The notes beneath the pieces were generated by a model that was not told where the DNA came from, did no database searches, and saw only the letters and a list, made by a program, of their open reading frames with translations. Below, one piece after another: positions 1 through 15,702 of a DNA stretch of 17,431 nt (positions are counted from its first letter, which is position 1; the number at the start of each line of letters is the position of its first letter). Source of the stretch: a virus (taxonomy: Duplodnaviria > Heunggongvirae > Uroviricota > Caudoviricetes); the IMG/VR virus record IMGVR_UViG_2541047898_000005, positions 1-17,431 of that record; one strand, given 5' to 3'. Position numbers and translations under genes: made by a program.

Positions 1-1344
1 CTGGTGCTGATGCCGTCGGCAGACTATGCACGCCAGATTTGTGGTGCGGGAAGTCAGCTGGCGCGTATGGTCGAGGCTTATCGCCAGACTGACCCGTTTG
101 GCGAGCTGTATGTGATTGCCGTTCCGGAAGCCACAGGCGCGGCGGCAACGGTTACGCTGACGGTGACCGGGGAAGCAACCGAAAGCGGCACGGTGAATGT
201 CTATGTGGGACGTACCCGCGTGCAGGCTCCGGTGACCAACGGCGATAACGTCACGACGATTGCCAGCAGTATCCAGGATGCCATCAATGCCGTTCCGACT
301 CTGCCGTTTACAGCTTCATCTTCGGCTGGTGTTGTCACGCTGACCGCGCGTCATAAGGGGCTTTGCGGGAATGAAATTCCTGTCAGCCTCAATTACTACG
401 GCTTCGGTGGGGGTGAAGTGCTGCCAGCGGGCGTACAGATTGCCGTGGCGACGGGGACCGCCGGAACGGGCGCTCCGGTTCTCACCGGCGCGGTGGCTGC
501 AATGGCGGATGAGCCGTTTGATTATATCGGTCTGCCGTTCAACGACACGGCCTCCGTTAACACGCTGGTGACCGAGATGAACGATACCAGCGGTCGCTGG
601 AGCTATGCGCGTCAGCTGTATGGTCATGTGTATACGGCAAAGACCGGCACACTGTCAGAACTGGTGAACGCAGGTGACCAGTTTAACCAGCAGCACATCA
701 CCCTGGCGGGGTACGAAAAAGAGACCCAGACGCCTGCCGACGAGCTGGCGGCAAGCCGTACCGCCCGCGCAGCGGTGTTTATCCGCAACGATCCGGCACG
801 TCCCACGCAGACCGGTGAGCTGGTGGGTATGCTGCCTGCGCCGAAGGGGAAACGGTTCACGATGACCGAGCAGCAGACCCTGCTGTCTCATGGCGTGGCA
901 ACGGCGTATGTCGAAAGCGGGGGGCTGCGCATTCAGCGTGATGTCACCACGTACAGGAAAAATGCTTACGGGGTTGCGGATAACAGCTACCTCGACAGCG
1001 AGACGCTGCATACCAGTGCGTATGTACTGCGCAAACTGAAATCCGTCATTACCAGTAAGTACGGGCGTCACAAGCTTGCCAGCGACGGTACCCGCTTTGG
1101 TCCCGGTCAGGCGATTGTCACCCCGGCGGTAATCAAAGGGGAACTGCTGGCAACCTACCGTCAGCTTGAGCGTGCGGGGATCGTAGAAAACTACGAACTG
1201 TTTAAGCAGTACCTGGTTGTTGAGCGTGATGCCAGCGATCCGAACCGCCTGAACACGCTGTTCCCGCCTGACTATGTTAACCAGTTGCGTGTTTTTGCCG
1301 TGGTTAACCAGTTCCGTCTTCAGTATTCAGAGGAGTCTGCATAA
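1..1344 (+). CDS. Contractile tail sheath protein (Mu gpL-like), 5'-truncated by the window edge
   Basis: Frame is open from nt 1 and ends at TAA 1342-1344. It is followed directly by a 118-aa tube-like gene, a frameshifted chaperone and a tape-measure gene, which is the canonical myovirus order. No homology search run. Confidence 0.6.
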   Translation: MVLMPSADYARQICGAGSQLARMVEAYRQTDPFGELYVIAVPEATGAAATVTLTVTGEATESGTVNVYVGRTRVQAPVTNGDNVTTIASSIQDAINAVPTLPFTASSSAGVVTLTARHKGLCGNEIPVSLNYYGFGGGEVLPAGVQIAVATGTAGTGAPVLTGAVAAMADEPFDYIGLPFNDTASVNTLVTEMNDTSGRWSYARQLYGHVYTAKTGTLSELVNAGDQFNQQHITLAGYEKETQTPADELAASRTARAAVFIRNDPARPTQTGELVGMLPAPKGKRFTMTEQQTLLSHGVATAYVESGGLRIQRDVTTYRKNAYGVADNSYLDSETLHTSAYVLRKLKSVITSKYGRHKLASDGTRFGPGQAIVTPAVIKGELLATYRQLERAGIVENYELFKQYLVVERDASDPNRLNTLFPPDYVNQLRVFAVVNQFRLQYSEESA

Positions 1345-1700
1345 TGGCCCGTATCGGGGGAACCTGTTATTTCAAAATTGACGGTCAGCAGCTATCGCTG
1401 ACCGGCGGCATTGAGGTGCCCATGAACAGGACGGTCAATGATGACATCATCGGCCTGGACGGCTCAGTGGACCGCAAGGAAACTCACCGTGCGCCTTATG
1501 TCAAAGGGACCTTCAAGGTGCCGAAGAATTTTCCGGTGAGCAAAATCACCTCGTCTGATGAGATGACCATCACTGCCGAGCTGGCGAACGGTCAGGTCTA
1601 TGTATTGTCGTCCGCCTGGCTGCACGGAGAAGCGAACCATAATGCCGAAGAAGGCACGGTTGATCTTGAGTTCCACGGTGAAGAAGGGGATTACCAGTAA
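1344..1700 (+). CDS. Tail tube protein (Mu gpM-like)
   Basis: 118-aa ORF with ATG overlapping the upstream stop (TAATG) and a GAGGAG Shine-Dalgarno; sits between the sheath and chaperone genes. Confidence 0.6.
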   Translation: MARIGGTCYFKIDGQQLSLTGGIEVPMNRTVNDDIIGLDGSVDRKETHRAPYVKGTFKVPKNFPVSKITSSDEMTITAELANGQVYVLSSAWLHGEANHNAEEGTVDLEFHGEEGDYQ

Positions 1701-1969
1701 TGAAAGAGCTTGAGTTAAAGAAACCGATTATCGCTCATGGTGAGACACTCTCCGTACTGGAGTTTGATGAACCCACCGGGAAGGATGTCCGCGAGCTGGG
1801 GTATCCCTACCAGATGAATCAGGATGAGTCCGTCAGACTTCTGGCGCATGTGGTGTCGAAATACATTGTGCGGCTGGCGAAAGTGCCGCAAAGCTCTGTC
1901 GACCAGATGTCTCCGGCAGACCTGAATGCAGCGGCGTGGCTTGTGGCTGGTTTTTTCCTCCAGGCCTGA
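1700..1969 (+). CDS. Tail assembly chaperone (lambda G-like short product)
   Basis: 89-aa ORF, TAATG overlap with the tube gene, immediately upstream of the tape-measure gene; contains the slippery heptamer T_TTT_TTC at 1951-1957. Confidence 0.6.
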   Translation: MKELELKKPIIAHGETLSVLEFDEPTGKDVRELGYPYQMNQDESVRLLAHVVSKYIVRLAKVPQSSVDQMSPADLNAAAWLVAGFFLQA

Positions 1970-2118
1970 CGGCTGAATACCTCACTGATCGCTTCTTTGA
2001 CTGCGCCAGCTACTGGCGCATTAATCCCTTCGAATTGCTGAATATGCCGATCAGTGAAATTCCCTTGCTGGTCAGTCAGGCAAACAGGATAGAGCAGGAG
2101 AAACGCACACATGGCTGA
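1700..2118 (+). CDS. Tail assembly chaperone frameshift fusion (lambda GT-like), made by -1 slippage at 1951-1957
   Basis: ORF 1936-2118 is in the -1 frame relative to 1700-1969 and overlaps it across the X_XXY_YYZ heptamer T_TTT_TTC. The fused reading would be ...LVAGFF then PPGLTAEY... The extension ends 7 nt into the tape-measure gene. Confidence 0.5.
1951..1957 (+). other. Slippery heptamer TTTTTTC for programmed -1 ribosomal frameshift
   Basis: Zero-frame codons GGT TTT TTC; after a -1 slip the next codon is CCT (1957-1959), which continues ORF 1936-2118. Confidence 0.5.
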
Positions 2119-4063
2119 ATTTGAGCTTAAGGCGTTGATCACCGGTGTCGACAGGCTTTCTCCCGCGCTGTCGAAAATGCAAAAGAAAATCCGGGGATTT
2201 AAACGCCAGGCGGAAGAAGCGTCACAGGGTGGGCTGGCGCTTGGTGGCGGACTGGCAGCGGGGCTGACGCTTTCCCTGAAATCTTATGCCGATCAGGAAA
2301 ACGCCGCTACCGGGCTGAAAGTCGCCATGATGGATGCGAACGGCGAGGTTGGAAAGAGCTTTCAGGACATCAATAAACTGGCTATTGGCCTGGGTAACCA
2401 GCTACCCGGTACAACGGCTGATTTCCAGAACATGATGCAGATGCTGGTGCGTCAGGGGATCCCGGCAGAAAACATTCTGGGTGGTGTGGGTAAAGCGACA
2501 GCTTATCTTGCGGTACAACTGAAAAAAACACCGGAAGCGGCTGCCGAGTTTGCCGCAAAGATGCAGGATGCTACCGGAACGGCCTCAGAAGACATGATGG
2601 GGCTGTTCGACACAATTCAGAAGGCGTTTTATCTGGGCGTTGACGACACCAACATGCTGTCATTCTTCACTAAAACCAGCTCTGTTCTGAAGATGGTGAA
2701 TAAGGACGGTCTTCAGGCTGCACAGAGTCTTGCCCCCATCAGTGTCATGATGGATCAGATGGGGATGAACGGGGAGTCGGCAGGTAATGCCCTGCGAAAA
2801 GTTATCCAGTCCGGATTAAGCGTTAAGAAAATCAGGGACGTCAATAAAATCATGGCCCGCCAGAAACTCGGAGTACAGCTCGATTTTACTGATGGCAAAG
2901 GGAGTTTTGGTGGTCTTGATAACATGTTCAGGCAACTGGCAAAGCTGCGAAAACTGACCGACGTTAAGCGAACCGGTGTACTTAAGGCAATATTTGGTGA
3001 TGATGCCGAAACCCTTCAGGTGGTCAATGCGCTGATCGATAAAGGAAAGGATGGCTACGATCAGATCCAGCAGAAGATGAATAAACAGGCCAGCCTGAAT
3101 AAACGTGTTCAGGCTCAGCTTGGTACGCTGTCCAACCTGTGGGAGGCAATGACGGGGACCGCAACTAACGGCCTTGCGGCTATTGGCGGCGCATTTTCTG
3201 GTGACGCTAAGAACATCACGCAGTGGCTGGGGGAGTTGGGGGAGAAATTCACGAAGTTTGCGGATGAAAATCCCCGGGTTATTCGCGGCGTCGTCGGGCT
3301 TGCTGCCGGTCTTGCGATTCTGAAACTGGGATTGATGGGCGTGGGCAGTGCCATCAGCATTGTCAGCAGGATCATGTCGATGACGCCGATTGGCATGATT
3401 GCGACGGCGATAGCCCTGGCTGCGGGATTAATTATCACCAACTGGGATGTTGTCGGACCTTATTTCAAGAAGCTCTGGGAAACCATTAGTCCTTATTTTG
3501 AGGCTGGCTGGGAACTCCTTAAGAAAGTTTTTGCCTGGTCGCCGCTGGGGATGGTGATCAATAACTGGGGGCCGGTTGTTAAGTGGTTTCAGGATATGTG
3601 GGACAAGCTGAAGCCAATTATTGAGTGGTTTACCGACAGTTCCGGTGACACGGTCGATGCCATTAACTCTGCGCAGTGGGGCGCGGGTGCTTATGATGCT
3701 TATGGGACGGGAATACCGCCACGGGGATACACTCCTTATCCGGCGCAGTCAAACAACGCCTCCGGTGACACGGTCGATGCCATTAACTCGGCGCAGTGGG
3801 GCGCGGGTGCTTATGATGCTTATGGGACGGGAATACCGGCGCGGGGATACACACCTTATCCGGCGGTAGATCCGGCTCAGTCAAACAACGCCTCCGATGC
3901 CACAGGCTCGAATCCCTTCATGATTAATAAAGCTACCGCGCCAAAAGTTGATGGTGAGATCAAGGTATCATTTATAAATATGCCACCAGGTATGCGGGTT
4001 ACGGAAACACGCTCCAGTGGCATTGATATAAATCACGATGTTGGCTATACCCGATTTTGGTAG
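2111..4063 (+). CDS. Tail tape measure protein
   Basis: 650-aa ORF directly after the frameshifted chaperone pair; Ala/Gly-rich helical N-terminal part, hydrophobic central stretch (GVVGLAAGLAILKLGLMGVGSAISIV...), CAGGAG Shine-Dalgarno before the ATG. Confidence 0.8.
   Translation: MAEFELKALITGVDRLSPALSKMQKKIRGFKRQAEEASQGGLALGGGLAAGLTLSLKSYADQENAATGLKVAMMDANGEVGKSFQDINKLAIGLGNQLPGTTADFQNMMQMLVRQGIPAENILGGVGKATAYLAVQLKKTPEAAAEFAAKMQDATGTASEDMMGLFDTIQKAFYLGVDDTNMLSFFTKTSSVLKMVNKDGLQAAQSLAPISVMMDQMGMNGESAGNALRKVIQSGLSVKKIRDVNKIMARQKLGVQLDFTDGKGSFGGLDNMFRQLAKLRKLTDVKRTGVLKAIFGDDAETLQVVNALIDKGKDGYDQIQQKMNKQASLNKRVQAQLGTLSNLWEAMTGTATNGLAAIGGAFSGDAKNITQWLGELGEKFTKFADENPRVIRGVVGLAAGLAILKLGLMGVGSAISIVSRIMSMTPIGMIATAIALAAGLIITNWDVVGPYFKKLWETISPYFEAGWELLKKVFAWSPLGMVINNWGPVVKWFQDMWDKLKPIIEWFTDSSGDTVDAINSAQWGAGAYDAYGTGIPPRGYTPYPAQSNNASGDTVDAINSAQWGAGAYDAYGTGIPARGYTPYPAVDPAQSNNASDATGSNPFMINKATAPKVDGEIKVSFINMPPGMRVTETRSSGIDINHDVGYTRFW
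3641..3892 (+). repeat. In-frame tandem duplication inside the tape-measure gene (unit 1 = 120 bp at 3641-3760; unit 2 = 132 bp at 3761-3892 with a 12-bp insertion)
   Basis: Near-identical DNA copies encode SGDTVDAINSAQWGAGAYDAYGTGIP(P/A)RGYTPYPA...QSNNA twice; read directly from the sequence. Confidence 0.9.
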
Positions 4064-4091
4064 CCAGGATTCCCCTCACATGTATTGCTGG

Positions 4092-4119
4092 TTGTAAGTC
4101 ATAAATAGAGTGATAGAAT
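4092..4119 (+). promoter_or_regulatory. Putative sigma70 promoter for the moron gene (-35 TTGTAA 4092-4097, 16-nt spacer, -10 TAGAAT 4114-4119)
   Basis: Hexamer match and spacing, about 35 nt upstream of the ATG at 4155; no experimental support. Confidence 0.3.
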
Positions 4120-4154
4120 TAATGCACATTTAGAAAAATGTTAATAGGCGAAAA

Positions 4155-4685
4155 ATGAAAGGCTATATCACAGCAAGTGTAATTCTTGGAGCAGCGGCTA
4201 TTTTTTCATCTCTCATAATCTCTGGCAACATCTCCTTTAAAGATGAACATATTATTCAGTTATCTGGAGGAGCCATAAAACTTGGTGATGTTTATAAAGA
4301 AAATAAATTGATAAGTGCAAAGATTATTTTTCCAGATAATCAGGGCGAACAGATTCTTGTTGTCGACGGCAATCCTGAAAACTTTAAGGAGGATTTTCAG
4401 GAGAAATTAAATAAAGTAATAAAAACTTTAAATGCGTCAAAGAAAAAAGATGAAGAGAAAGTTAGCCTGGATAATTTAAGTGTTATTGAAGAGTCTAAAC
4501 TAGAGCTCGTTTCTGCGGTGCGTTACTCTGCTCAGTATGTTCCTATGTTTACTCTGACGCTGGACAAAAAAGAAATTACCATGCCTAAAAATACGGTAAT
4601 ATTTCCATTTGCCAGCGATGAAACAGCTAAGTATTTAAATGAACAACAGCAAAAGTATAAAGATTCGTTGTTTCTGACTCGCTAA
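4155..4685 (+). CDS. Hypothetical secreted or membrane-anchored protein (moron inserted in the tail module)
   Basis: 176-aa ORF, visibly AT-rich and Lys-rich compared with the flanking tail genes. N-terminal hydrophobic segment (ITASVILGAAAIFSSLIISG) suggests a signal peptide or TM anchor; there is no Cys, so not a lipoprotein. Flanked by its own candidate promoter and a rho-independent terminator. Confidence 0.6.
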   Translation: MKGYITASVILGAAAIFSSLIISGNISFKDEHIIQLSGGAIKLGDVYKENKLISAKIIFPDNQGEQILVVDGNPENFKEDFQEKLNKVIKTLNASKKKDEEKVSLDNLSVIEESKLELVSAVRYSAQYVPMFTLTLDKKEITMPKNTVIFPFASDETAKYLNEQQQKYKDSLFLTR

Positions 4686-4702
4686 TTAATAAAATTCATT
4701 AC

Positions 4703-4736
4703 AAGGCCACCTTCTAATAGGTGGCTTTTTTATTTT
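4703..4736 (+). terminator. Rho-independent terminator after the moron gene
   Basis: Stem GCCACC (4706-4711) pairs with GGTGGC (4720-4725) around an 8-nt loop, followed by TTTTTTATTTT (4726-4736). Confidence 0.6.
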
Positions 4737-4746
4737 CGGAGTGTAT

Positions 4747-6117
4747 ATGACGTGGAAAGACAGGCTTCAGGATGCGTCATTTCGAGGTGTGCCGTTTAAG
4801 GTTGAAGAAGAAAGTGCGGGAACCGGCCGTCGTGTGGAAACACACGAATATCCGAACCGCGACAAACCCTATACCGAAGATCTGGGAAAAGTCACTTTCC
4901 GCCCGTCCATCACGGCTTATGTGGTGGGAGATGACTGCTTTGACCAGCGCGATCGCCTGATTGACGCGCTGAATAAACCCGGTCCCGGCACGCTTGTCCA
5001 TCCGACTTACGGTGAGCTGAAAGTCTGTGTTGACGGGGAAGTTCGGGTCAGCACATCGAAGAGTGAAGGGCGTATTGTCCGCTTTGACCTGAAGTTTGTC
5101 GAAGCGGGAGAACTCTCTTATCCCACTTCAGGTGCGGCGACGGCGCAGACGCTGATGTCATCCTGTTCTGCACTGGATGACTGCATCAGTGACAGCTTCA
5201 GTGGTTTCAGTATCGATGGCGTGGCGGATTTTGTGCAGAACGACGTCGTCGGTAATGCCGGCACAATGCTGGGGTATGTTTCTGATGCGATGAAAGTGGT
5301 GGATTCTGCCGTATCGGATGCCGCCAGGCTGTTGCAGGGGGATATCTCGGTACTTCTGCCGCCGCCATCGTCAGGCAAAAATTTCGTTGAGCAGGTGCAG
5401 AAAATGTGGCGTACCGGGAAACGCCTTTATGGTAACGCCAGCGACCTGGTCACCATGATCAAAACGCTTTCCGGTGTCAGCCTCGGCAGCGATCTGCAAC
5501 CGCGCGGCGTCTGGAAAACGGACAGTAAAACCACCGCCACGGCGACGCAGCAGCGTAACGTGGTTGCCAGCACCCTTCGTGCGACCGCAATCAGCGAAGC
5601 GGCGTATGCCGTCACCCGATTGCCTGCGCCAACAACTTCCGCGGTGATGCAGAATGCCGCAGTGGGGCAGTCAACAACTTCCGCGGTGATGCAGAATGCC
5701 GCAGTGGGGCAGGCAACAACACCCGCGCAGAGCACTGGCTGGCCTTCCGTCACGCATCCGGCACTGAACAATGCTCCGGCGGTGAAAAGCACGGTTGACC
5801 TGCCGACGTGGGAAGAACTGACTGACATTCGCGACACACTGAATACGGCAACTGATAAGGAGTTGTCCCGTACAACCAGTGATGCGCTGTTTCTGGCGCT
5901 GCGCCGGGTGAAAGCAGATCTGAATGCGGATATCAACACGCGCCTTGAACAGTCTGCACGGATCATTCAGCGCACGCCGGATGAGGTTTTACCCGCGCTG
6001 GTGCTGGCGGCGACCTGGTTTGATAACGCGGCGCGTGACGCGGACATTATCCGGCGTAATGCCATTACGCATCCCGGCTTTGTGCCGGTGATCCCTCTGA
6101 AGGTGCCAGTGCAATGA
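4747..6117 (+). CDS. DNA circulation protein (Mu gpN / gp43-like)
   Basis: Position after the tape-measure gene in Mu order; N-terminus MTWKDRLQDASFRGVPF... matches my memory of the Mu N family. ATG at 4747 has a GGAG Shine-Dalgarno; the track's GTG at 4741 is less likely. Confidence 0.65.
   Translation: MTWKDRLQDASFRGVPFKVEEESAGTGRRVETHEYPNRDKPYTEDLGKVTFRPSITAYVVGDDCFDQRDRLIDALNKPGPGTLVHPTYGELKVCVDGEVRVSTSKSEGRIVRFDLKFVEAGELSYPTSGAATAQTLMSSCSALDDCISDSFSGFSIDGVADFVQNDVVGNAGTMLGYVSDAMKVVDSAVSDAARLLQGDISVLLPPPSSGKNFVEQVQKMWRTGKRLYGNASDLVTMIKTLSGVSLGSDLQPRGVWKTDSKTTATATQQRNVVASTLRATAISEAAYAVTRLPAPTTSAVMQNAAVGQSTTSAVMQNAAVGQATTPAQSTGWPSVTHPALNNAPAVKSTVDLPTWEELTDIRDTLNTATDKELSRTTSDALFLALRRVKADLNADINTRLEQSARIIQRTPDEVLPALVLAATWFDNAARDADIIRRNAITHPGFVPVIPLKVPVQ
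5632..5715 (+). repeat. 42-bp in-frame tandem duplication (2 units) inside the DNA-circulation gene
   Basis: acaacttccgcggtgatgcagaatgccgcagtggggcag(t/g)ca twice, encoding TTSAVMQNAAVGQ(S/A) twice. Confidence 0.9.
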
Positions 6118-7193
6118 ACGATAACGTCACGCTACGGGTAAATGGCCGAGAGTGGAATGGCTGGACATCGGTGCGCATCGGTGCCGGTATTGAACGGCTG
6201 GCGCGGGATTTCAGCGTGGAGATCACCCGCCAGTGGCCGGGAGATGAGGGTATCACCACGCTTCAGCCGCGCATTAAAAATGGTTCAAAAGTGGAAGTGC
6301 TGATTGGTGATGAGCTGGTGATCACCGGCTGGGTGGAGTCGACCCCCGTTCGTTACGATGCCCGTTCGGTCAGCACCGGTATTGCCGGACGTAGTCTGAC
6401 TGCTGACCTGATTGACTGTGCAGCCGAACCGACACAGTTTAACGGACGATCGCTGGTACAGATTGCGCAGGCGCTTGCTGCGCCTTTCGGCATTGAGGTG
6501 GTGAACAGCGATGCGCCGTCGGGTGTTATTCCGGATGTCCAGCCTGATCACGGTGAAACGGTGATCGAAGTGATCAACAAAATACTCGGTCAGCAGCAGG
6601 CGCTGGCTTATGACGACCCGCACGGCAGGCTGGTGATTGGTGGTATTGGCTCAACGCGGGCACATACCGCGCTGGTACTTGGGGAAAACATCCTTTCCTG
6701 TGATACGGAGAAGAGTATCCGGGAGCGGTTTTCAGTTTACCAGGTGGCGGGGCAGCGTGCCGGAAACGACGATGATTTCGGTGAGGCCACCACCACCGCG
6801 CTGCGGGCCCGCACAGAGGATGCATTTATTGCCCGTTACCGTCCGATGTATATCAGGCAGACAGGGCAGGCTACGGGGGCAGGCTGTATTGCGCGTGCTG
6901 ACTTTGAAGCCCGACAACGGGCGGCGCGGACGGATGAAACCACCTATGTGGTGCAGGGCTGGCGACAGGGTAACGGTACGCTGTGGCAGCCCAACCAGCG
7001 GGTGATTGTCTTCGATCCGGTCTGTGGTTTCGACAATACCGAACTGCTTGTCTCGGAAGTCACGTTTACTCAGGACCAGAATGGCACCCTGACGGAAATC
7101 CGTGTCGGCCCACCTGATGCTTATCTGCCTGAACCCGAAGCCCCCGGCGCGCGGAAAAAGAAAAAAGCCAGAGTACAGGAGGACCCGTTCTGA
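6114..7193 (+). CDS. Baseplate hub / tail protein (Mu gpP / gp44-like)
   Basis: 359-aa ORF with ATGA overlap to the upstream gene; synteny between the DNA-circulation and spike genes. Confidence 0.55.
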   Translation: MNDNVTLRVNGREWNGWTSVRIGAGIERLARDFSVEITRQWPGDEGITTLQPRIKNGSKVEVLIGDELVITGWVESTPVRYDARSVSTGIAGRSLTADLIDCAAEPTQFNGRSLVQIAQALAAPFGIEVVNSDAPSGVIPDVQPDHGETVIEVINKILGQQQALAYDDPHGRLVIGGIGSTRAHTALVLGENILSCDTEKSIRERFSVYQVAGQRAGNDDDFGEATTTALRARTEDAFIARYRPMYIRQTGQATGAGCIARADFEARQRAARTDETTYVVQGWRQGNGTLWQPNQRVIVFDPVCGFDNTELLVSEVTFTQDQNGTLTEIRVGPPDAYLPEPEAPGARKKKKARVQEDPF

Positions 7194-7741
7194 TGAGGAC
7201 GATTGAAGCCATGCAGCGACAACTTCTCGGCCTGATTGGGCGGGCCGTGGTGAAAAGCATCAGTGCCGCCACGAAATGTCAGACCGTGGATGTGTCCCTG
7301 ATTGCCGGTGAACCCAAAGCCGGGGTTGAACATCTTGAACCCTACGGTTTTACCGCAAGGGCAAACAGCGGTGCGGAAGCGGTGGTGTTGTTTCCGGATG
7401 GCGACCGTTCTCATGCGGTGGTTGTTACGGTGTCGGACCGGCGCTACCGCCTGAAAGGGCTGCAGACGGGTGAGGTGGCTGTCTATGACGATCAGGGGCA
7501 GTCCGTGACGCTGACCCGGGAGGGGATCGTGGTGGACGGTGCAGGGAAAACGATCACGTTTCGCAATGCACCTGAAGCACGTTTTGAAATGGATCTGGAA
7601 GTGACCGGACAGGTGAAAGACCTGTGCGACTCCGGCGGCACCACCATGTCAGCGATGCGGCTTGCCTATAACGGGCATCGTCACAGAGAGAACGGTCAGG
7701 GTAGTAACACCGACAAACCTGATAAAGCGATGGAGGCATGA
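7193..7741 (+). CDS. Baseplate spike / assembly protein V-like (Mu gp45-like)
   Basis: 182-aa ORF with TGATG overlap; position and size fit the gpV-type spike in Mu/P2 baseplate modules. Confidence 0.55.
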   Translation: MRTIEAMQRQLLGLIGRAVVKSISAATKCQTVDVSLIAGEPKAGVEHLEPYGFTARANSGAEAVVLFPDGDRSHAVVVTVSDRRYRLKGLQTGEVAVYDDQGQSVTLTREGIVVDGAGKTITFRNAPEARFEMDLEVTGQVKDLCDSGGTTMSAMRLAYNGHRHRENGQGSNTDKPDKAMEA

Positions 7742-8166
7742 TGGAACTGTGGCTGACGGTGAACGGTAAACGCACCTGCGCCAGCGCACCGCTGGATCCG
7801 CTGACCCGCGCCGTGGTGATTTCCCTGTTCACCTGGCGGCGGGCGGAGCCTGATGACAATGCCGACGTCCCGATGGGATGGTGGGGGGATACCTGGCCTG
7901 CGGTACAGAATGACCGTTACGGCTCCCGACTGTGGCTGCTTCAGCGCAGCAAACTGACCAATCAGCTGGTGCAGACGGTAAGGGGATATATCCGCGAATG
8001 CCTGCAATGGATGACTGATGACGGCGTGGTGTCCCGTATTGATCTGGATATCCGCCGCACCGGGATTAATGAACTGGGTAACAGTATCACTCTCTGGCGT
8101 CGTGACGGACCGGTAATGATTTCTTTTGATGATCTGTGGAGTGCGATAACGCATGGCGGACAGTGA
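7738..8166 (+). CDS. Baseplate wedge protein, gp25/GPW-like (Mu gp46-like)
   Basis: 142-aa ORF, translationally coupled (ATGA overlap), sitting between the spike and the J-like gene. Confidence 0.55.
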   Translation: MMELWLTVNGKRTCASAPLDPLTRAVVISLFTWRRAEPDDNADVPMGWWGDTWPAVQNDRYGSRLWLLQRSKLTNQLVQTVRGYIRECLQWMTDDGVVSRIDLDIRRTGINELGNSITLWRRDGPVMISFDDLWSAITHGGQ

Positions 8167-9211
8167 ATTTCAGCGCCCGACGCTGGCAGAAAATATCAGT
8201 ATGCTCCGTAACGATTTATTCGCCAGGCTGGACGTCAGCGACACGCTCCGGCGCATGGATGAAGACGTGCGGGCAAAGGTGTATGCGGCGGCGCTGCATA
8301 CGGTTTACGGTTACATCGATTATCTGGCAATGAACATGCTGCCTGACCTGTGCGATGAGTCCTGGCTGGCGCGACATGCTGCGATGAAACGGTGTCCGCG
8401 CAAGGGGGCCACGACTGCCAGCGGGTATATGCGCTGGGAAGGTGTCAGCGATGGCCTGAAGGTGACCGCCGGGAGTGTTATTCAGCGCGATGACCTGGTT
8501 CAGTACACGGCAACTTCTGATGCAACCAGCTCAGGTGGAGTCCTGCGCGTGCCGATCGCCTGCTCAACTGCAGGCGCGGTCGGTAACGCTGACGACGGTA
8601 CGGCATTAATCCTGGTCACGCCGGTGAATGGTCTGCCGTCTTCCGGTGTGGCAGATACCCTGACTGGCGGATTCGATACTGAAGATCTGGAAACGTGGCG
8701 CGCCCGCGTCATTGAGCGGTATTACTGGACGCCGCAGGGCGGGGCTGACGGGGACTATGTCGTCTGGGCTAAAGAAGTGCCCGGCATTACCCGCGCATGG
8801 ACATACCGTCACTGGATGGGAACGGGAACTGTCGGTGTGATGATTGCCAGCAGTGACCTGATTAATCCCATTCCGGAAGAATCAACGGAAACGGCGGCAA
8901 GACAACACATTGAGCCACTGGCCCCGGTGGCAGGCTCTGATTTGTATGTGTTCAGGCCGGTGGCGCATACTGTGGATTTTCATATCCGCGTGACGCCGGA
9001 CACACCCGAAATACGGGCTGCCATCACCGCCGAGTTGCGTTCGTTCCTGCTGCGTGATGGTTATCCGCAGGGAGAACTGAAGGTGTCACGTATCAGTGAA
9101 GCGATTTCCGGTGCGAACGGGGAATACAGCCATCAGTTGCTTGCACCGGCAGACAATATCTCCATTGCAAAAAATGAGCTGGCAGTTCTGGGGACGATTT
9201 CATGGACGTGA
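8153..9211 (+). CDS. Baseplate J-like protein (Mu gp47 / P2 gpJ-like)
   Basis: 352-aa ORF in the expected position; overlaps its neighbours in the way coupled baseplate genes do. Confidence 0.6.
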
Positions 9212-9786
9212 CAAACGATGATTACATCCGTCTGTTGTCGGCGCTGCTGCCGCCCGGTCCGGCGTGGTCAGCCAGCGATCCGGCGATTGCCGGTGCGGCA
9301 CCGTCATTAACCCGCGTTCATCAGCGTGCGGATGCCCTGATGCGGGAGCTGGATCCGCGCACCACCACCGAACTGATAAATCGCTGGGAGCGTCTGTGCG
9401 GCCTGCCGGATGAATGTAATCCCGCAGGGACACAGACCCTTCGCCAGCGTCAGCAACGGCTGGATGCGAAGGTTAACCTGGCGGGTGGCATCAACGAGGA
9501 TTTTTATCTTGCACAGCTCGCTGCCCTGGGCAGACCAGATGCCGCCATCACGCGATACGACAAAAGCACGTTCACCTGCTCATCAGCCTGCACTGACGCT
9601 GTGAATGCGCCGGAATGGCGGTATTACTGGCAGGTCAACATGCCAGCCGCCACCAACACCACCTGGATGACATGTGGCGATCCCTGTGATTCCGCACTGC
9701 GTATCTGGGGGGACACCGTTGTCGAGTGTGTGCTTAACAAACTCTGCCCGTCGCATACCTACGTAATTTTTAAATATCCGGAGTAA
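9202..9786 (+). CDS. Tail/baseplate protein, Mu gp48 / P2 gpI-like (YmfQ-like)
   Basis: 194-aa ORF immediately upstream of the tail-fibre gene; same length and position as the e14 ymfQ product as I recall it. Confidence 0.55.
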
Positions 9787-9789
9787 TCC

Positions 9790-10293
9790 ATGCATCGTAT
9801 AGACACGAAAACCGCGCAGAAGGATAAGTTCGGCGCGGGTAAGAACGGTTTTACCCGTGGTAACCCCCAGACCGGCACGCCTGCCACCGATCTGGATGAT
9901 GACTACTTTGACATGTTGCAGGAGGAGCTTTGCAGCGTTGTGGAGGCATCCGGTGCCAGCCTGGAGAAGGGGCGGCACGACCAGTTGCTTACCGCGCTTC
10001 GTGCGCTGCTGTTAAGCCGCAAGAATCCGTTTGGCGATATCAAATCGGATGGCACGGTGAAAACGGCTCTCGAAAACCTTGGTTTGGGAGAAGCGGCTAA
10101 ACGAAATGTGGGAGCACCTGATCATCGGATTCCAGACATATCTGCATCAGGCTCTGGCAAATACAACTGTGAGGTATCTTGTGCTCAAAATGACCCAGAG
10201 TTGTCAAAGGATTTTCCTGGGAAGGAATCAACTGAATCAAGAGGTAATTTTATTATTGGATGTGATGACGGCGCAGGGGTTGATACAGGCTGA
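9790..10293 (+). CDS. Tail fibre protein: constant N-terminal part (9790-10096) fused to the currently expressed variable C-terminal cassette (10097-10293)
   Basis: ORF runs across the left inverted repeat into the invertible segment. The post-repeat C-terminus resembles the minus-strand cassette at the other end (GEAAKR...SGKYN...ESRG(N/K)F). Confidence 0.6.
10079..10096. repeat. Left inverted repeat / putative recombination crossover site of the invertible segment (ttggtttgggagaagcgg)
   Basis: Perfect 18-bp inverted repeat with 11911-11928, lying inside the tail-fibre ORF and next to a Gin/Pin-family invertase gene. Confidence 0.85.
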
Positions 10294-10997
10294 TGTTCAG
10301 TGGGTACTCAAGCCGCAGCGCCGGCCTAGAAACTTATTCCGTTTGTGGCAACCAAGGGATAAGAATCAATAGAAGTATCAGACCGGGCGGCTATGTATAG
10401 AAGAGTAAATATGGAAATAGGAGGATTTTATGCATCAGCAGACTTAGGGCGCCTGGGCCAATCACTGACACGTTATTAATTAAGAAAACACTTTAATACT
10501 GGCTGGAACGAGGCCTGTTGATGCATTAGTTCATCTAGCTGAAATGTGAGTGATATATATGGGAGAACGCCGAATAGGAAAGAGCCCAGATTGCTAGGAA
10601 GATGGTTAACATAACTGGCTATAAATACCTCGGTGATACGAGGGAGAATTTATTTACAAGGACTGATCAGATAGCAATGGGTGTCGGAACTCGACCAAAT
10701 TCCTCTTTAACCGTAAATAGTAGCCCGGTGACTGGGTTAATGATTTGCCGATAGGTGAGGAACAGGCCCTGTATATATTTTGCCTACAATAGCGGTGGGA
10801 ACGTGTGCAGGATGATAATGGCGGGGGCCAAGAAAATGACTGCCCTAGGCGACTGGCCGTAAAGGCCAACTGCCGTCCGCCGGGGAGCTCGTAACTGTAA
10901 CTGGCATCGCGTAAAAGTGATCACGGACAGTGTTAAGTATGATTGTGCCGGAGTAGGTCCGGCTGAGTCCCGGCTGCAGTCACTGTTTAATCCGGCT

Positions 10998-11009
10998 GAG
11001 GGTACCCTC
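10998..11009. repeat. Perfect 12-bp palindrome gagggtaccctc at the exact centre of the invertible segment
   Basis: Symmetry axis falls between 11003 and 11004, which equals (10079+11928)/2. Confidence 0.9.
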
Positions 11010-11644
11010 TGTTTCATCCAACTGAGATTGGAGCTCTGCTTTAAACGCTCCTACGCCGGAACCGTCTTATTTCTCAGTGTCTTGCACCAAATTTACGCCG
11101 TCACAGTAACAGAATCCCGTTAACCGCCGGATAGCGGTTGTACTGAACGGCCAGTGGCGTAGGCCTTTCATTACTTTGCCATCCCGCGGTTTGAAGCTAC
11201 ACACGTGCCTACCGAGATGGTCTCACAAAATTTCATTGCATTTGAACCCCACAGAACAGCCGACTATAAGAGGCGCCATCGGTCTACTGTTAGCGTCTAA
11301 AGAGTTAGATGCCCGGATACCTACATACTCGCCTAGATGATTCGTTGATGTAGATATATATTCCCTCTGATCGTGGACGTATTTATAGACAGGTGGGTAC
11401 CCCGCTTTCCTATTAAACTCGTCTTTTCTCTATACGGCGTTATCCAATATATTGTACAGAAAATACATTTAGATGCACTATTTCATGGGCGGGTCACGCT
11501 CCATTCACTACATCAGATTTTCTCACATTAACGGAGTGAAGGTCATTTGATGAGAGTCACTAAGGAAGTGGATTCATCAAGCCTCCTTCCTTGGGTATAC
11601 GTAGTTCTAAACATACCAGTTCGTGCCGATTCTTCTTTTGTGTC

Positions 11645-11928
11645 TTACGTATCTTTTGTGATAACCGCCTTACGGTGCTTGGCCGGCGCACCGGCTAGTG
11701 TACTCTCTGAAAATCGTCCTCTATCAATAACTGCCCCGGCAGCCAAGGCAAGAGGAAACTTACCGCGAGATTCGTGAGATTTCGCTCTTTGATCATCCTT
11801 CGCAAACTTCGGGTATATATCACCACTAAGTAACTGAAAGTTGTATTTGCCAGATCGAAATGGAGATATAGCTGAAATCTGTTGATCAGGTATTCCAACA
11901 GTTCGTTTTGCCGCTTCTCCCAAACCAA
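11645..11928 (-). CDS. Alternative tail-fibre variable C-terminal cassette (promoterless; would fuse to the constant part after inversion)
   Basis: Minus-strand frame open from the right inverted repeat to a stop at 11645, encoding GEAAKRTVGIPDQQISAISPFRSGKYNF...ESRGKF..., parallel to the plus-strand cassette. Confidence 0.45.
11911..11928. repeat. Right inverted repeat / putative recombination crossover site (reverse complement of 10079-10096)
   Basis: ccgcttctcccaaaccaa is the exact reverse complement of ttggtttgggagaagcgg. Confidence 0.85.
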
Positions 11929-11994
11929 CGTTTATGAAAATGAAGAAATAACAAGCAAATGGCATCATTCCTGCTTTTACCAGGGGGATTTAAC

Positions 11995-12549
11995 ATGCTT
12001 ATTGGCTATGTACGTGTATCAACAAATGACCAGAATACCGATCTACAACGTAATGCGCTGAACTGTGCAGGATGTGAGCTGATTTTTGAAGACAAGATAA
12101 GCGGTACAAAGTCCGACAGACCAGGACTGAAAAAGCTGCTCAGGACATTATCGGCAGGTGACACGCTGGTGGTCTGGAAACTGGACCGACTGGGGCGCAG
12201 TATGCGGCATCTTGTCGTGCTGGTGGAGGAGTTGCGCGAACGAGGCATCAACTTTCGTAGTCTGACGGATTCAATTGATACCAGTACCCCAATGGGGCGC
12301 TTTTTCTTTCATGTGATGGGTGCCCTGGCTGAAATGGAGCGTGAACTGATTGTTGAACGAACAAAAGCTGGACTGGAAGCTGCTCGCGCACAGGGACGAA
12401 TTGGTGGACGTCGCCCCAAACTTACACCAGAACAATGGGAGCAGGCCGGACGATTAATTGCAGCAGGAATTCCTCGCCAGAAGGTAGCGATCATCTATGA
12501 TGTTGGTGTATCGACACTGTATAAGATGTTTCCGGTCGGAGATAAATGA
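11995..12549 (+). CDS. pin: Site-specific DNA invertase, serine recombinase of the Gin/Hin/Pin/Cin family
   Basis: 184-aa product beginning MLIGYVRVSTNDQNTDLQRNAL... with the catalytic Ser in the YVRVST motif, ...VVWKLDRLGRSM..., and a C-terminal HTH-like region (GIPRQKVAIIYDVGVSTLYK). It matches the Gin/PinE sequences I remember closely. GGGGGA Shine-Dalgarno 6 nt upstream. The track's upstream Met (11959) is probably not the start. Confidence 0.9.
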   Translation: MLIGYVRVSTNDQNTDLQRNALNCAGCELIFEDKISGTKSDRPGLKKLLRTLSAGDTLVVWKLDRLGRSMRHLVVLVEELRERGINFRSLTDSIDTSTPMGRFFFHVMGALAEMERELIVERTKAGLEAARAQGRIGGRRPKLTPEQWEQAGRLIAAGIPRQKVAIIYDVGVSTLYKMFPVGDK

Positions 12550-12716
12550 AACCGCAGGCTCGTCGTATGCAAGAACGTGCTGCGGCTGGCTGGTGAACTT
12601 CCGATAGTGCGAGTATTGAATGATTTACAGCCGTTATTGATTTTACATATTTTTTGTATGAAAGGATTAGCGCCTCCTCCCACCGATCCTCCATGACTTT
12701 ACGCCACTGTCTCTCG

Positions 12717-12741
12717 GACTGCTATGTGCCAGGAGCGGATG
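12717..12741. repeat. Junction motif copy A (ggactgctatgtgccaggagcggatg)
   Basis: Shares gct(a/c)tgtg(c/t)caggagcgga(t/c)g with the copy at 14257-14281; located between pin and the first cargo gene. Confidence 0.5.
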
Positions 12742-12792
12742 CGACCCATCGGCATGTTTTAGTCGTCGCAAGCAAATCATAACGGTTAATTG

Positions 12793-12822
12793 TTGAGTAG
12801 ATTTTTCATGTCAATTTATATT
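12793..12822 (+). promoter_or_regulatory. Possible sigma70 promoter for the 432-aa cargo gene (TTGAGT, 18 nt, TATATT)
   Basis: Weak hexamer matches in an AT-rich leader; AAGGAAG Shine-Dalgarno before the ATG at 12882. Low confidence. Confidence 0.2.
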
Positions 12823-12881
12823 ATTGTAGATAAGTCTGATAAAAATTTCAGTCACATCCTCTTGGATAATAAGGAAGTTAT

Positions 12882-14180
12882 ATGAAAGCTCGTTTAATAC
12901 CACCGTACGAAAACTACACTGGCAATGTTTTATGGCGAAAAGAGGATTTTATTAATAAAGTCGACGATATCTCAACATCTCTAAAAAAGTTAAGAGATAT
13001 GGGATATTGGGCCAGTGCCTATCCTGAAGGAGATGGCATTACATTTAAATATACCAAGGATAGTTATCAAAAAAGCAGTATCGAAATTCTAGAAGACTTC
13101 TCAATATGCTTTGAGTGGGTAGAAATAGAGTTAGCTAAATCAAGAAGCTCTAACCTAGAATTAGCTGAATTAGAGGGTAAAAACAAAAATATGGAGTGCA
13201 TAGTTATTGTGCCGATTGAGAAGATTTTCATTCAGGAAACCATCGAGATCGGAAAGTATATTTTTTATTGCGGAAGACAATTTGATGAAGAGTCACATAA
13301 GCGATTATCAGAGCAAGATGGTTCGTATATACAGTTTAACTGTGACCTACCATATATTGATTTATTAAAACTTAATTCAAGCATTGATCATAACAGCCAT
13401 GTTATAAACATGTGTTTATCTATAGCTGAATATGCGCTTGATTTAGTCAGATTTTCTCACAGCTCATTTACACGTATGGAATATACCCCTAATCCTGCAG
13501 GTCAACGCTCTGACGGATTTTATGATGTAGAAATCATTCCTCGTGAGAGGACTCATCTTAAACCAATTAAGATAAGTGGAATATCAAGACCCCTTGCTGT
13601 GAGTAATAATTGGCTAGGCCCTCAGGTTGACAGCTTGTATTACCCTGGGTTGCAATATTTATCTTCTATCTACGATGGAGTCGTTGAAAATGAACTTTCA
13701 AAATTAGTTAGCTCCGTAGTTAGGGCATGTAGGCAATCTTTTTATTCAATTGGCGCGGAATCACAATTTCTAAACCTAGTCTTTGCACTTGATGGTCTTG
13801 CTAATATTGACCCAAATTGGAAAGGATGGAAGCAAAGGACCTACATTGCAGCACTTACATGTAATAACTCACTAATCAAATTTAAGAAAAACCTAGAAGT
13901 TTATGACGAGTTATATACTGACGTAAGAAACAAGCTTGTTCATGATGGTAAAGATTTTTACGAACTTAACGTCAACGCGAACGAATCCTCTGAACAAATC
14001 TTTAAGTATATTAAGATAATTATAATACTCATCGAAAGTAACGGCTTTTCCACTTTGCAAGAATTGAGAGATTATGCAGTTCACCTACTTCAGCAGGAGG
14101 ATTATAGAACTGCTTCTGTTGAGATAATTGACAAAGTATCTCTTTTAAGAGGAAAAAAACCTAATTATCCTTCATGGTGA
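12882..14180 (+). CDS. Hypothetical cargo protein with a C-terminal HEPN-like R-x4-H motif (candidate abortive-infection RNase)
   Basis: 432-aa AT-rich ORF with a strong Shine-Dalgarno. Motif DVRNKLVHDG fits the HEPN R-[NQ]-x3-H signature, about 90 residues from the C-terminus in a predicted helical region. Family assignment is inference. Confidence 0.45.
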   Translation: MKARLIPPYENYTGNVLWRKEDFINKVDDISTSLKKLRDMGYWASAYPEGDGITFKYTKDSYQKSSIEILEDFSICFEWVEIELAKSRSSNLELAELEGKNKNMECIVIVPIEKIFIQETIEIGKYIFYCGRQFDEESHKRLSEQDGSYIQFNCDLPYIDLLKLNSSIDHNSHVINMCLSIAEYALDLVRFSHSSFTRMEYTPNPAGQRSDGFYDVEIIPRERTHLKPIKISGISRPLAVSNNWLGPQVDSLYYPGLQYLSSIYDGVVENELSKLVSSVVRACRQSFYSIGAESQFLNLVFALDGLANIDPNWKGWKQRTYIAALTCNNSLIKFKKNLEVYDELYTDVRNKLVHDGKDFYELNVNANESSEQIFKYIKIIIILIESNGFSTLQELRDYAVHLLQQEDYRTASVEIIDKVSLLRGKKPNYPSW

Positions 14181-14256
14181 TTAAATCAACGTGCTAATTA
14201 ATTTTTAATATAACTTCTGCTCCTCGCTCTCAGCGGACCTTCAGCTCAGTGATATC

Positions 14257-14281
14257 GTCCGCTCTGTGTCAGGAGCGGACG
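14257..14281. repeat. Junction motif copy B, forming a hairpin (stem GTCCGCTC/GAGCGGAC, loop tgtgtcag) between convergent cargo genes
   Basis: 8-bp perfect stem read from the sequence; no U-tract, so not a canonical intrinsic terminator. Left half matches copy C, right half matches copy A. Confidence 0.5.
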
Positions 14282-14373
14282 TTACTGACATCACAATGTG
14301 TTAATCAATGGAGAGCAGGTCACCATAATGTCATGGGTATCGCTGGTGATATGATCGCAATACACGACAATTA

Positions 14374-15063
14374 TTATTTAATTATTTTAAAAAGTTCATT
14401 GTAGCTACAACCTTTGAATATTTCGAACTGATCATGGTAATTTGAATAAGCGCTTGCCATCATTCCGATATAACTATCCCATGATGACTCAGAAACTACC
14501 ATTTCACCACGCTCTAATTCATCAATTAAAATATAAATGATATTAAATTGTGCAACAAGAGCAGTGTAGGTGGTGATGAGATTATTTAGAAGGTCTGAAT
14601 GATTAGGTTTGATTTTCCACAAACCAAAACTATCCCGAATTGCAACTAATTCGAATCGTAAATCTTTTGACTCAGAAAGTAACTCCCTCCCACTTGTAGT
14701 GAGATGCTTGTAGAGTATGGGGTTCTCACTTTTTATTCTTGGCTGTATAGAAATAAGTGATTGATAACATTGATGATTTAAGTCCTTTGATCGAAACATG
14801 CTGTCGATGAACAATGTAGTTCTCTCGAAAGCCTTTTCTGATTTTTTGTTTTTAATCCATTCATTTACCCTTGTTAATGCATAAATCGCTAGTCCAAGTG
14901 TTATTGTTGAAACTGTTGCAGTAATTGTTGATGGTTCAATTTTTTTAAAAAACCAGATATCAATCCATGCAAAAGAGACTGAGCCGAGATACATAAACAA
15001 CATGTGACTCGCGAAGTATTCCCAAACACCTTTTAAATAGCTTTTCATGTAGATCCTTAACAT
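14374..15063 (-). CDS. Hypothetical membrane protein (two N-terminal TM helices plus a ~150-aa cytoplasmic domain); real start probably the internal Met at 15048
   Basis: AT-rich ORF. Hydrophobic segments MLFMYLGSVSFAWIDIWFF and ITATVSTITLGLAIYAL. The ATG whose reverse complement is at 15046-15048 has an AAGGA Shine-Dalgarno 5 nt upstream, whereas the first ATG has none. Confidence 0.5.
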   Translation of the reverse strand: MLRIYMKSYLKGVWEYFASHMLFMYLGSVSFAWIDIWFFKKIEPSTITATVSTITLGLAIYALTRVNEWIKNKKSEKAFERTTLFIDSMFRSKDLNHQCYQSLISIQPRIKSENPILYKHLTTSGRELLSESKDLRFELVAIRDSFGLWKIKPNHSDLLNNLITTYTALVAQFNIIYILIDELERGEMVVSESSWDSYIGMMASAYSNYHDQFEIFKGCSYNELFKIIK

Positions 15064-15217
15064 TTTCTTAATTATATTTTATGGTGGTATTTTTGTTAGT
15101 ATCGGTATGGATTAGAAATAGTTGATACTTTTATGCCCTGAGAGCATGAAAACTGGAAAAGCCTTGCTCATGATATAAATAGTGTTAGTTGCCACTGCTT
15201 TGGAAGTTATCCTTTAA

Positions 15218-15412
15218 ATGGGCTATCGGAAAGCCAGACTTCTAGCAGATGCTGAATCCGTGATTTTGCCGCTGGAGCGCGCTGTCAGGCTGAATATGGC
15301 AACAGATGAGGAGCGCAGTCGACTGGAGGCATGGGAACGCTACAGCGTTCTGGTCAGTCGTGTGGATCCTGCAAATCCTGAATGGCCGGAAATGCCGCAA
15401 GAAGTTGTATGA
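15218..15412 (+). CDS. Hypothetical small protein (64 aa; Glu/Arg-rich, predicted helical)
   Basis: ORF with normal (non-AT-rich) composition inside the 640-bp spacer between two cargo genes; no recognisable motif. May be a gene fragment. Confidence 0.25.
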
Positions 15413-15438
15413 GCTCTGGTGTGAGCTTACATATCTAT

Positions 15439-15478
15439 GGCACAGAGTAAAGCCTAATCTGACAGTCCGCTCTGTGCC
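15439..15478. repeat. Junction motif copy C within a 9-bp-stem hairpin (ggcacagag ... ctctgtgcc, 22-nt loop)
   Basis: Contains gtccgctctgtgcc, which shares 12 contiguous nt with copy B; lies between the membrane-protein gene and the RES-like gene. Confidence 0.5.
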
Positions 15479-15702
15479 GAAGCTAGCAAAGCCATGGTCC
15501 TTTCGCAGCAAGTTGCGTAAATAAGGCGTTTTTATCTCTTGAAGCATTCTACAAAGCCAACTCCTCGCTCAAACAGACGTGTCTGTTCAGCAATCTGCCC
15601 GCTTGGTATCAAGGGACGCCAGTAACGCGATACCGGGTGAATTCCTTCCTTAACTGCCCTCACATCATCTTTAATAATAGTTTACCCTGATATAACGGAT
15701 GA

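Follow-up and report, generated by a model that had tools for sequence, protein, structure and literature searches.

Duplications and deletions in gp29 of phage T4 alter the length of its tail. Engineered duplications in the tape-measure protein (TMP) likewise lengthen the tails of phages lambda (Katsura 1987, as cited in PMC9022992) and TP901-1 (PMC5099701), and according to these two sources each TMP residue accounts for ~0.145-0.15 nm of tail length. The figure for TP901-1 is 0.145 nm per residue, and in this phage the last 60 residues of the TMP are essential (PMC5099701). Tandem repeats were reported in about half of TMPs in one survey (PMC13585406), and a block of 44 aa is present three or four times in prophages of the Bacillus cereus group (Belcaid et al. 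2011, PMC3271669). In phage Mu, which has a tail of 30 rings, residues 674-690 of the TMP gp42 were modelled as touching the hub protein gp44 and the spike protein gp45 (PMC11915804). The tail of phage SfI is ~110 nm long (PMC3636060), and its TMP possesses a single copy of the repeat unit discussed below.

Here we analyze a stretch of 17,431 nt (hereafter the window) from an E. coli prophage, whose TMP gene contains two such units in tandem. This TMP resembles those of SfV (orf14), SfI, SfII and e14/SfV-like prophages in gene order, in the unit itself, in the Trp-rich region and in the C-terminal module, but these relatives have one unit and a gene of ~1833-1836 nt, whereas the window has two units and a gene of 1953 nt. 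With the natural TMP repeats described earlier (PMC3271669, PMC5099701, PMC13585406) it shares the presence of in-frame tandem blocks, the number of which varies between close prophages. However, the repeats of Belcaid et al. and of TP901-1 are helical ruler units with an 11-residue Trp/Phe period, whereas the unit in the window lacks this period and is apparently located in a non-helical linker. The engineered changes in lambda gpH and in the TP901-1 TMP illustrate the same principle of TMP length setting tail length, but they concerned helical ruler segments and were measured by electron microscopy, while the change in the window is natural and maps to a coil-like linker. Finally, both the TMP of the window and Mu gp42 belong to Mu-type contractile tails, and the window encodes gp43-, gp44-, gp45-, gp46-, gp47- and gp48-like partners; there is no sequence-level match in the PDB between the two TMPs, and C-terminal anchoring of the window protein is proposed by analogy only. 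The general kind of variation is already well documented, and the novelty is confined to the linker site and the lack of the 11-residue periodicity.

A tape-measure gene with two repeat units

The open reading frame (ORF) at 2111-4063 had been called a tape-measure gene in a first-pass annotation made from the letters of the window, and this assignment is borne out by its match to PF10145 (PhageMin_Tail, TP901-family core; residues 88-296, 94 bits against a cut-off of 33.2, E = 1.4e-26), by the gene order and by homology to SfV orf14. At the DNA level the gene is 96-97% identical to the annotated TMP genes of SfV (orf14), SfI and SfII. It is preceded by genes for the sheath (4-1344), the tube (1344-1700) and a chaperone (1700-1969), and followed by an unknown ORF of 176 aa, by a gene for a gp43-like "DNA circularisation" protein and by gp44-, gp45-, gp46-, gp47- and gp48-like genes; a location after the tube and chaperone and before the baseplate hub genes is the one expected for a TMP. 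The host element is an SfV-like, Mu-type contractile-tailed E. coli prophage. An exact-sequence look-up retrieved the same protein from E. coli UMEA 3199-1 as WP_021563586.1, so that it is already present, and correctly named, in RefSeq; bases 1-14,063 of the window (the reach of the compared locus) are identical to scaffold KE701968.1 of the UMEA 3199-1 draft genome. Rfam scans of the window and of the region 10100-11960 gave no matches, nor did a PADLOC scan of four cargo ORFs. The features relevant to the repeat are as follows:

2111-4063, + strand: TMP gene, 650 aa plus stop, Mu/SfV type (Pfam PF10145, SfV-type homology)
3287-3439, + strand: hydrophobic, membrane-like TMP segment, residues ~393-443 (translation; helices in a low-confidence model)
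3440-3637, + strand: Trp-rich repeat region typical of TMPs, residues ~444-509, the last clearly helical stretch before the unit
3641-3760, + strand: repeat copy 1, 120 nt, 40 aa, residues 511-550, with PPR and a synonymous ACT and without the 12 nt encoding VDPA
3761-3892, + strand: repeat copy 2, 132 nt, 44 aa, residues 551-594
3866-3877, + strand: 12-nt segment GTAGATCCGGCT encoding VDPA, present in copy 2 and missing in copy 1 (sequence, alignment)
3893-3906, + strand: imperfect direct repeat of the unit start, TCCGATGCCACAGG versus TCCGGTGACACGG at 3641 and 3761 (repeat search, sequences)
3893-4060, + strand: conserved C-terminal module, residues 595-650 (...GEIKVSF.N.PPGMRV...HDVGYT..), conserved in distant TMPs

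Tandem Repeats Finder detected a repeat of period 120 at 3641-3865 (1.9 copies, 96% matches, score 422). In pairwise alignment the two copies differ by four substitutions (unit positions 30, 79, 81 and 93) and one 12-nt indel, and the repeat finder, the alignment and the translation together agree with the location near the C-terminus, the coordinates, the unit size and the four-codon difference given in the first-pass annotation, as well as with its description of the duplication as in-frame: both copies are read in the frame of ORF 2111-4063 (650 aa), 57-140 residues short of the C-terminus. A match of 105 nt at 96% identity within 17 kb is far beyond chance. The unit, SGDTVDAINSAQWGAGAYDAYGTGIP.RGYTPYPAVDPAQSNNA, is a Gly/Pro/Tyr-rich motif of 40-44 residues, which include six Gly, four Pro, four Tyr and one Trp but no Phe (23-25% Gly plus Pro, from the translation); we searched its translation for the 11-residue Trp/Phe spacing of the Belcaid type and did not find it. 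We also considered an overlapping ORF of 82 aa in another frame (3621-3869) as a separate gene, but it lies inside the TMP gene as a by-product of the stop-free repeat and is unsupported.

Approximately 6 kb downstream, the segment 10094-11816, which separates the tail-fibre gene from the pin invertase gene, has no ORF of more than 77 codons wholly inside it on either strand. It has no close match in complete genomes, and can be aligned gap-free with the invertible fibre segment of strain MB06231 in either orientation (63.6% and 59.8% identity). As many as 99.4% of its bases match one orientation or the other, with a switch every 1.9 informative sites on average, and we read this segment as a consensus artefact from a culture with a flipping segment.

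Copy number among relatives and origin of the duplication

The TMP gene is carried by ~920 of 5426 complete E. coli genomes, nearly all of which have one unit; in the 40 of these ~920 matches that were listed, the gene spans 1827-1833 nt, the length expected with one unit. We looked in all 5426 genomes for an intact 60-mer with the junction of copy 1 and copy 2 at its centre, which turned up in only five of them (1332KP, G5, 730V1, 873.10 and HH107), which come from five countries. Each of the five has a TMP gene of 1956 nt with the same two units and the same variant copy 1, which gives the two-unit allele a frequency of ~0.5% among the E. coli prophages with this TMP in complete genomes. We preferred this count to one derived from protein clusters at 90% identity, where the 650-aa protein of the window falls into a cluster with a 610-aa representative. 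Database matches include 31 two-unit protein variants of 651 aa, and most of the named ones are labelled E. coli; a few two-unit proteins bear the label Salmonella enterica, as given by their source. Among the proteins listed is the two-unit TMP of only one of the five complete genomes. None of the eight sequenced phages with the TMP gene has two units. Thus, the first-pass annotation was right to expect copy-number variation between isolates, and identical copy number in all relatives, which it had named as an observation that would count against its reading, is not what the relatives exhibit. The in-frame repeat number of this TMP differs among close relatives, as is characteristic of a natural length polymorphism. 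Because the two-unit allele recurs in independent complete genomes, it is itself no assembly artefact.

The same comparison bears on the polarity of the indel, which the first-pass annotation had interpreted as a four-codon insertion in copy 2. The single unit of the relatives is identical to copy 2 save for one synonymous site (3790), the 12 nt for VDPA included. All single-unit alleles seen, that of SfV included, encode VDPA or VDLA, as do the two copies of an independent duplication (see below), and for this reason we assign the 12-nt change to copy 1 as a deletion. The proposed insertion is thereby reversed: VDPA/VDLA is ancestral, and the comparison indicates that the ancestral unit is 44 residues long, that copy 1 lost four codons and that copy 2 gained none. 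The lost segment is bracketed by 7-nt direct repeats ATCCGGC (3858-3864 and 3870-3876), and this arrangement fits a loss of 12 nt from copy 1 by slippage between them, as we infer from the sequence.

A short direct repeat, TCCGGTG(A/C)CAC, brackets the unit and marks both end points of the duplication; in SfV, L008 and other alleles the repeat that follows the unit reads TCCGGTGCCACAGG. In GCA_020170735.1 we found a second duplication, composed of two copies of 132 nt (2 x 44 aa) that differ by 1 nt and have identical end points. It occurred in a VDLA background, which indicates that it is independent of the one in the window and truly recent. As duplication recurs at identical end points, an origin by microhomology-mediated slippage or unequal exchange is supported and plausible, with an exact microhomology of only 7 nt. 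According to this model, slipped mispairing or unequal exchange at TCCGGTG(A/C)CAC would duplicate exactly one unit, and would have done so at least twice with the same ends; in the allele of the window type, copy 1 would later have lost 12 nt between the ATCCGGC repeats. The PPR variant of copy 1 is also found in the single-unit allele P0139, hence some of what distinguishes the two copies, PPR in particular, may be older than the duplication.

Probable route of the two-unit stretch into this prophage

Outside the repeat, the TMP gene of the window differs from that of the single-unit L1PEag1 at one of 1833 sites, in addition to the extra 120 nt. In comparison with the five two-unit alleles it exhibits 71-74 substitutions in the gene, only one or two of which lie within 3572-3900; elsewhere these alleles are ~3.7% diverged from the window, and they possess another C-terminal module and another downstream cargo gene. 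Across the whole window, the nearest single-unit relative is 19SZHZ886Rt; at 76 of the 78 informative sites in 641-3640 that separate it from a two-unit allele, the window sides with 19SZHZ886Rt. SNP maps delimit the following feature:

3671-3900 at its largest and 3719-3790 at its smallest, + strand: donor-like patch, inside which the window is of the two-unit 1332KP/G5 type, while outside it is of the single-unit L1PEag1/19SZHZ886Rt type

A second donor-like patch, from 5573 to ~5700 and thus 1.7 kb downstream, includes an additional copy of the 42-nt repeat located at 5630-5727 in the gp43-like gene; the interval that separates the patches still has the cargo gene and the SNPs proper to the window. 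The three substitutions and the deletion in copy 1 are too many for a lineage with one change per 1.8 kb, which argues for import: the two-unit stretch is probably older than the lineage of the window and was acquired, most simply, by short-patch recombination, in which a 1332KP-like donor would have contributed 72-230 nt to the prophage.

The first-pass annotation had taken the near-identity of the copies as evidence of a recent event, and a duplication in situ in the prophage lineage of this strain could indeed be suggested by the adjacency and 96% identity of the copies and by the fact that the closest relatives (99.7% identical over the region) are single-unit. We nevertheless regard it as extremely improbable, since three substitutions and a 12-nt deletion separate copy 1 from the ancestral unit, against a single site that differs from L1PEag1 in the remaining 1833 nt of the gene, and since the identical variant of copy 1 is found in ~3.7%-diverged alleles with a different C-terminal module and cargo gene. 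A recent date in this lineage is contradicted by the same observation, as all peculiarities of copy 1 (PPR, ACT and the 12-nt deletion) occur in alleles that diverge from the window at ~72 sites. An independent origin of the window's duplication was also considered and rejected, as it would need the same three substitutions and the same 12-nt deletion to be recreated.

Another explanation would attribute the mosaic to a chimeric draft assembly: UMEA 3199-1 would contain two related prophages, one with one unit and one with two, and the assembler could have put the two-unit loop and the 42-nt repeat from one of them into a one-unit background. The scaffold was built from short reads and has a gap of 2440 N inside the prophage, the segment 10094-11816 is a base-by-base mix of two orientations of an invertible segment, both donor-like patches are located exactly at tandem repeats, which are typical spots for assembler error, and only one contig yielded the exact protein in which this background is combined with the two-unit patch. 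On the other hand, 76 of the 78 upstream informative sites are of one type, which speaks against general mixing of two prophages, the protein constitutes a RefSeq entry in a UniRef100 cluster with four members, and the two-unit allele is real in five complete genomes. We therefore consider a chimera unlikely. The possibility of an assembly artefact, raised already in the first-pass annotation as a potential refutation, can be discarded for the two-unit allele as such, owing to the five complete genomes, whereas the local context of the allele in the draft scaffold is putative. Taken as a whole, we consider it likely that the window contains a genuine, rare two-unit TMP allele, born by slippage and imported as a patch, which adds 40 non-helical residues to the protein.

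The unit in the protein and its predicted effect on the tail

Upstream of the unit, the Trp-rich region is the part to which most distant TMPs can be matched (residues 1-40 of a C-terminal query composed of window residues 471-650). A PDB sequence search with the TMP gave only a weak match, to a Clostridioides TMP (8v3w), also in the Trp-rich region, and the same search gave no match to any Mu gp42 chain. Relatives that are 36-44% identical over the C-terminal query keep a related motif, ..W-G-x-G..Y-x-T-G..G-Y/F-N-P-Y.., while the most distant full-length TMPs examined have Gly/Ala/Pro-rich stretches of very different lengths at the position of the unit, flanked by the Trp-rich repeats on one side and by the conserved C-terminal module, ..GE(I/L).V.F.NAPPGMRV...DVGYR.., on the other. 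Other in-frame indels in the family include deletions of 11, 30, 33, 35 and 52 aa as well as a 41-aa duplication; the duplication and the 11- and 30-aa deletions affect the Trp-rich region, and many of the family indels are singletons. We modelled the full TMP with AlphaFold2 from a shallow alignment of 23 sequences, and used only the secondary-structure outline of the resulting model (mean pLDDT 33). According to DSSP, the helices of this low-confidence model end at residue 522, residues 523-628 form coil and beta strands occupy 629-649; the translation itself displays the Trp-rich and hydrophobic segments. The unit apparently lies in a Gly/Pro/Tyr-rich, non-helical linker of variable length between the Trp-rich helices and the C-terminal module, and the helical ruler rule of 0.15 nm per residue need not hold for it. 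By analogy to the TMPs of Mu (PMC11915804) and TP901-1 (PMC5099701), the protein would occupy the lumen of the tube and set tail length, and by analogy to Mu gp42 we infer that the C-terminal module anchors in the baseplate hub and spike.

Extension by 40 non-helical residues of the stretch that connects the ruler helices to the hub anchor could leave the tail unchanged or make it longer by up to ~1-2 tube rings, and a longer tail is plausible within this limit. If counted like a helix, the 40 residues would contribute ~6-7 nm, i.e. one to two rings, and if slack, nothing, and the data agree with both outcomes; the predicted gain on a tail of ~110 nm is ~4-7 nm at most. It is quite conceivable that the unit is a neutral linker polymorphism, in which the extra 40 residues would be accommodated as slack in the lumen of the tube or hub, with tail length and infectivity unchanged. 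Such slack would agree with the Gly plus Pro content of the unit (23-25%) and its coil in the model, with the wide variation of the linker in length and sequence among distant TMPs, and with observations on TP901-1, in which deletions are tolerated directly before the essential C-terminal 60 residues and ~127 TMP residues add nothing to tail length (PMC5099701). However, the unit is placed between the hub anchor and the ruler helices, where any axial extent should add length, and the rarity of the allele (~0.5%) fits a mild cost as well as neutrality.

The unit could also be envisaged as a functional module, with the microhomology-bounded duplication serving as a recurrent switch of ring number or of TMP exit from the hub, co-selected with the repeat expansion in the gp43-like gene. 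The motif W-G-x-G ... Y-x-T-G ... G-Y-x-P-Y is conserved in TMPs down to 36-39% identity over the C-terminal query, and the 14-residue repeat of the gp43-like gene is present in two or more copies in four of the five complete two-unit genomes and in the window, compared to at most 8% of the genomes with that gene sequence. We regard such a switch as very unlikely.

If the extra unit does lengthen the tail, then the SfV, SfI and SfII group of well-studied temperate phages would include natural one- and two-unit variants, which could reveal whether a non-helical segment adjacent to the hub anchor is read as part of the ruler of a contractile tail. Otherwise, the locus would exemplify the routine processes by which structural genes of prophages change, namely mosaic recombination and slippage at repeats. 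In either case, it illustrates that near-identical copies do not date a duplication in a given genome, and that an insertion can be distinguished from a deletion only with outgroups.

Length variation in the tape-measure protein family and the gp43-like gene

Further in-frame length differences were found in the homologues of the tape-measure protein (TMP) P0032, P0033, P0041 and P0046-P0049. Changes among TMP relatives comprise the duplication of a Trp-rich segment (41 aa) and deletions of 11, 30, 33, 35 and 52 residues; most of them are single occurrences, and some may be assembly errors. A second gene of the tail module also contains a repeat:

5630-5727: in-frame tandem repeat of 42 nt (14 residues) in the gp43-like "DNA circularisation" gene

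19SZHZ886Rt (the closest single-unit relative over the whole window) has one copy of this repeat, the window and 1332KP have two each, and 730V1 has three. At least two copies are found in at most 39 of the 471 complete genomes that match the sequence, but in four of the five complete genomes with the two-unit TMP. In the window, the repeat falls inside the second donor-like patch, i.e. a stretch resembling the 1332KP-like, two-unit alleles.

The left edge of the window adjoins a gap in the source scaffold (locus L011):

5451-7890 of L011: run of 2440 N within the prophage, immediately upstream of window position 1

The gap stands in place of approximately 1170 nt, where relatives have genes for the tail terminator and a DUF2635 protein, followed by the first part of the sheath gene; for this reason the sheath ORF is truncated at this edge.

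Two positions with variable cargo

4155-4685: variable cargo slot, flanked by TMP and the gp43-like gene
12882-17082: three cargo ORFs downstream of pin, of 432 aa (+), 229 aa (-) and 459 aa (-)

In the window and its closest relatives the first slot is occupied by a 176-aa ORF, for which neither Pfam nor PADLOC returned a match; in the five two-unit prophages it encodes a PH-domain protein, and in SfV and GCA_020170735.1 (a genome with an independent TMP unit duplication) it is empty. Downstream of pin, the 459-aa ORF encodes a RES-domain protein with a weak N-terminal HEPN/RES match, whose annotation elsewhere is RES-family NAD+ phosphorylase; the 432-aa and 229-aa ORFs matched no family, and PADLOC gave no matches for any of the three. 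Since in other strains this position is occupied by AAA ATPase, FRG-domain, DUF6602 or Avs2 genes, it is suggested to be a defence-gene hotspot.

The scrambled stretch upstream of pin

10094-11816: scrambled stretch between a truncated tail-fibre ORF (9790-10293) and pin (11959-12549)

No ORF of more than 77 codons lies wholly within this stretch. Comparison with the invertible segment of strain MB06231 revealed that it is a base-by-base mixture of two orientations of a pin-invertible fibre/tfa segment: identity is 63.6% to one orientation and 59.8% to the other, 99.4% of the bases agree with at least one of them, and at informative sites the mean run before the orientation switches is 1.9, with neither indels nor a codon-position pattern. 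The same mixture is present in the public scaffold KE701968.1. We read the stretch as a consensus artefact from a culture with mixed segment orientations; if so, an active invertase would be implied.
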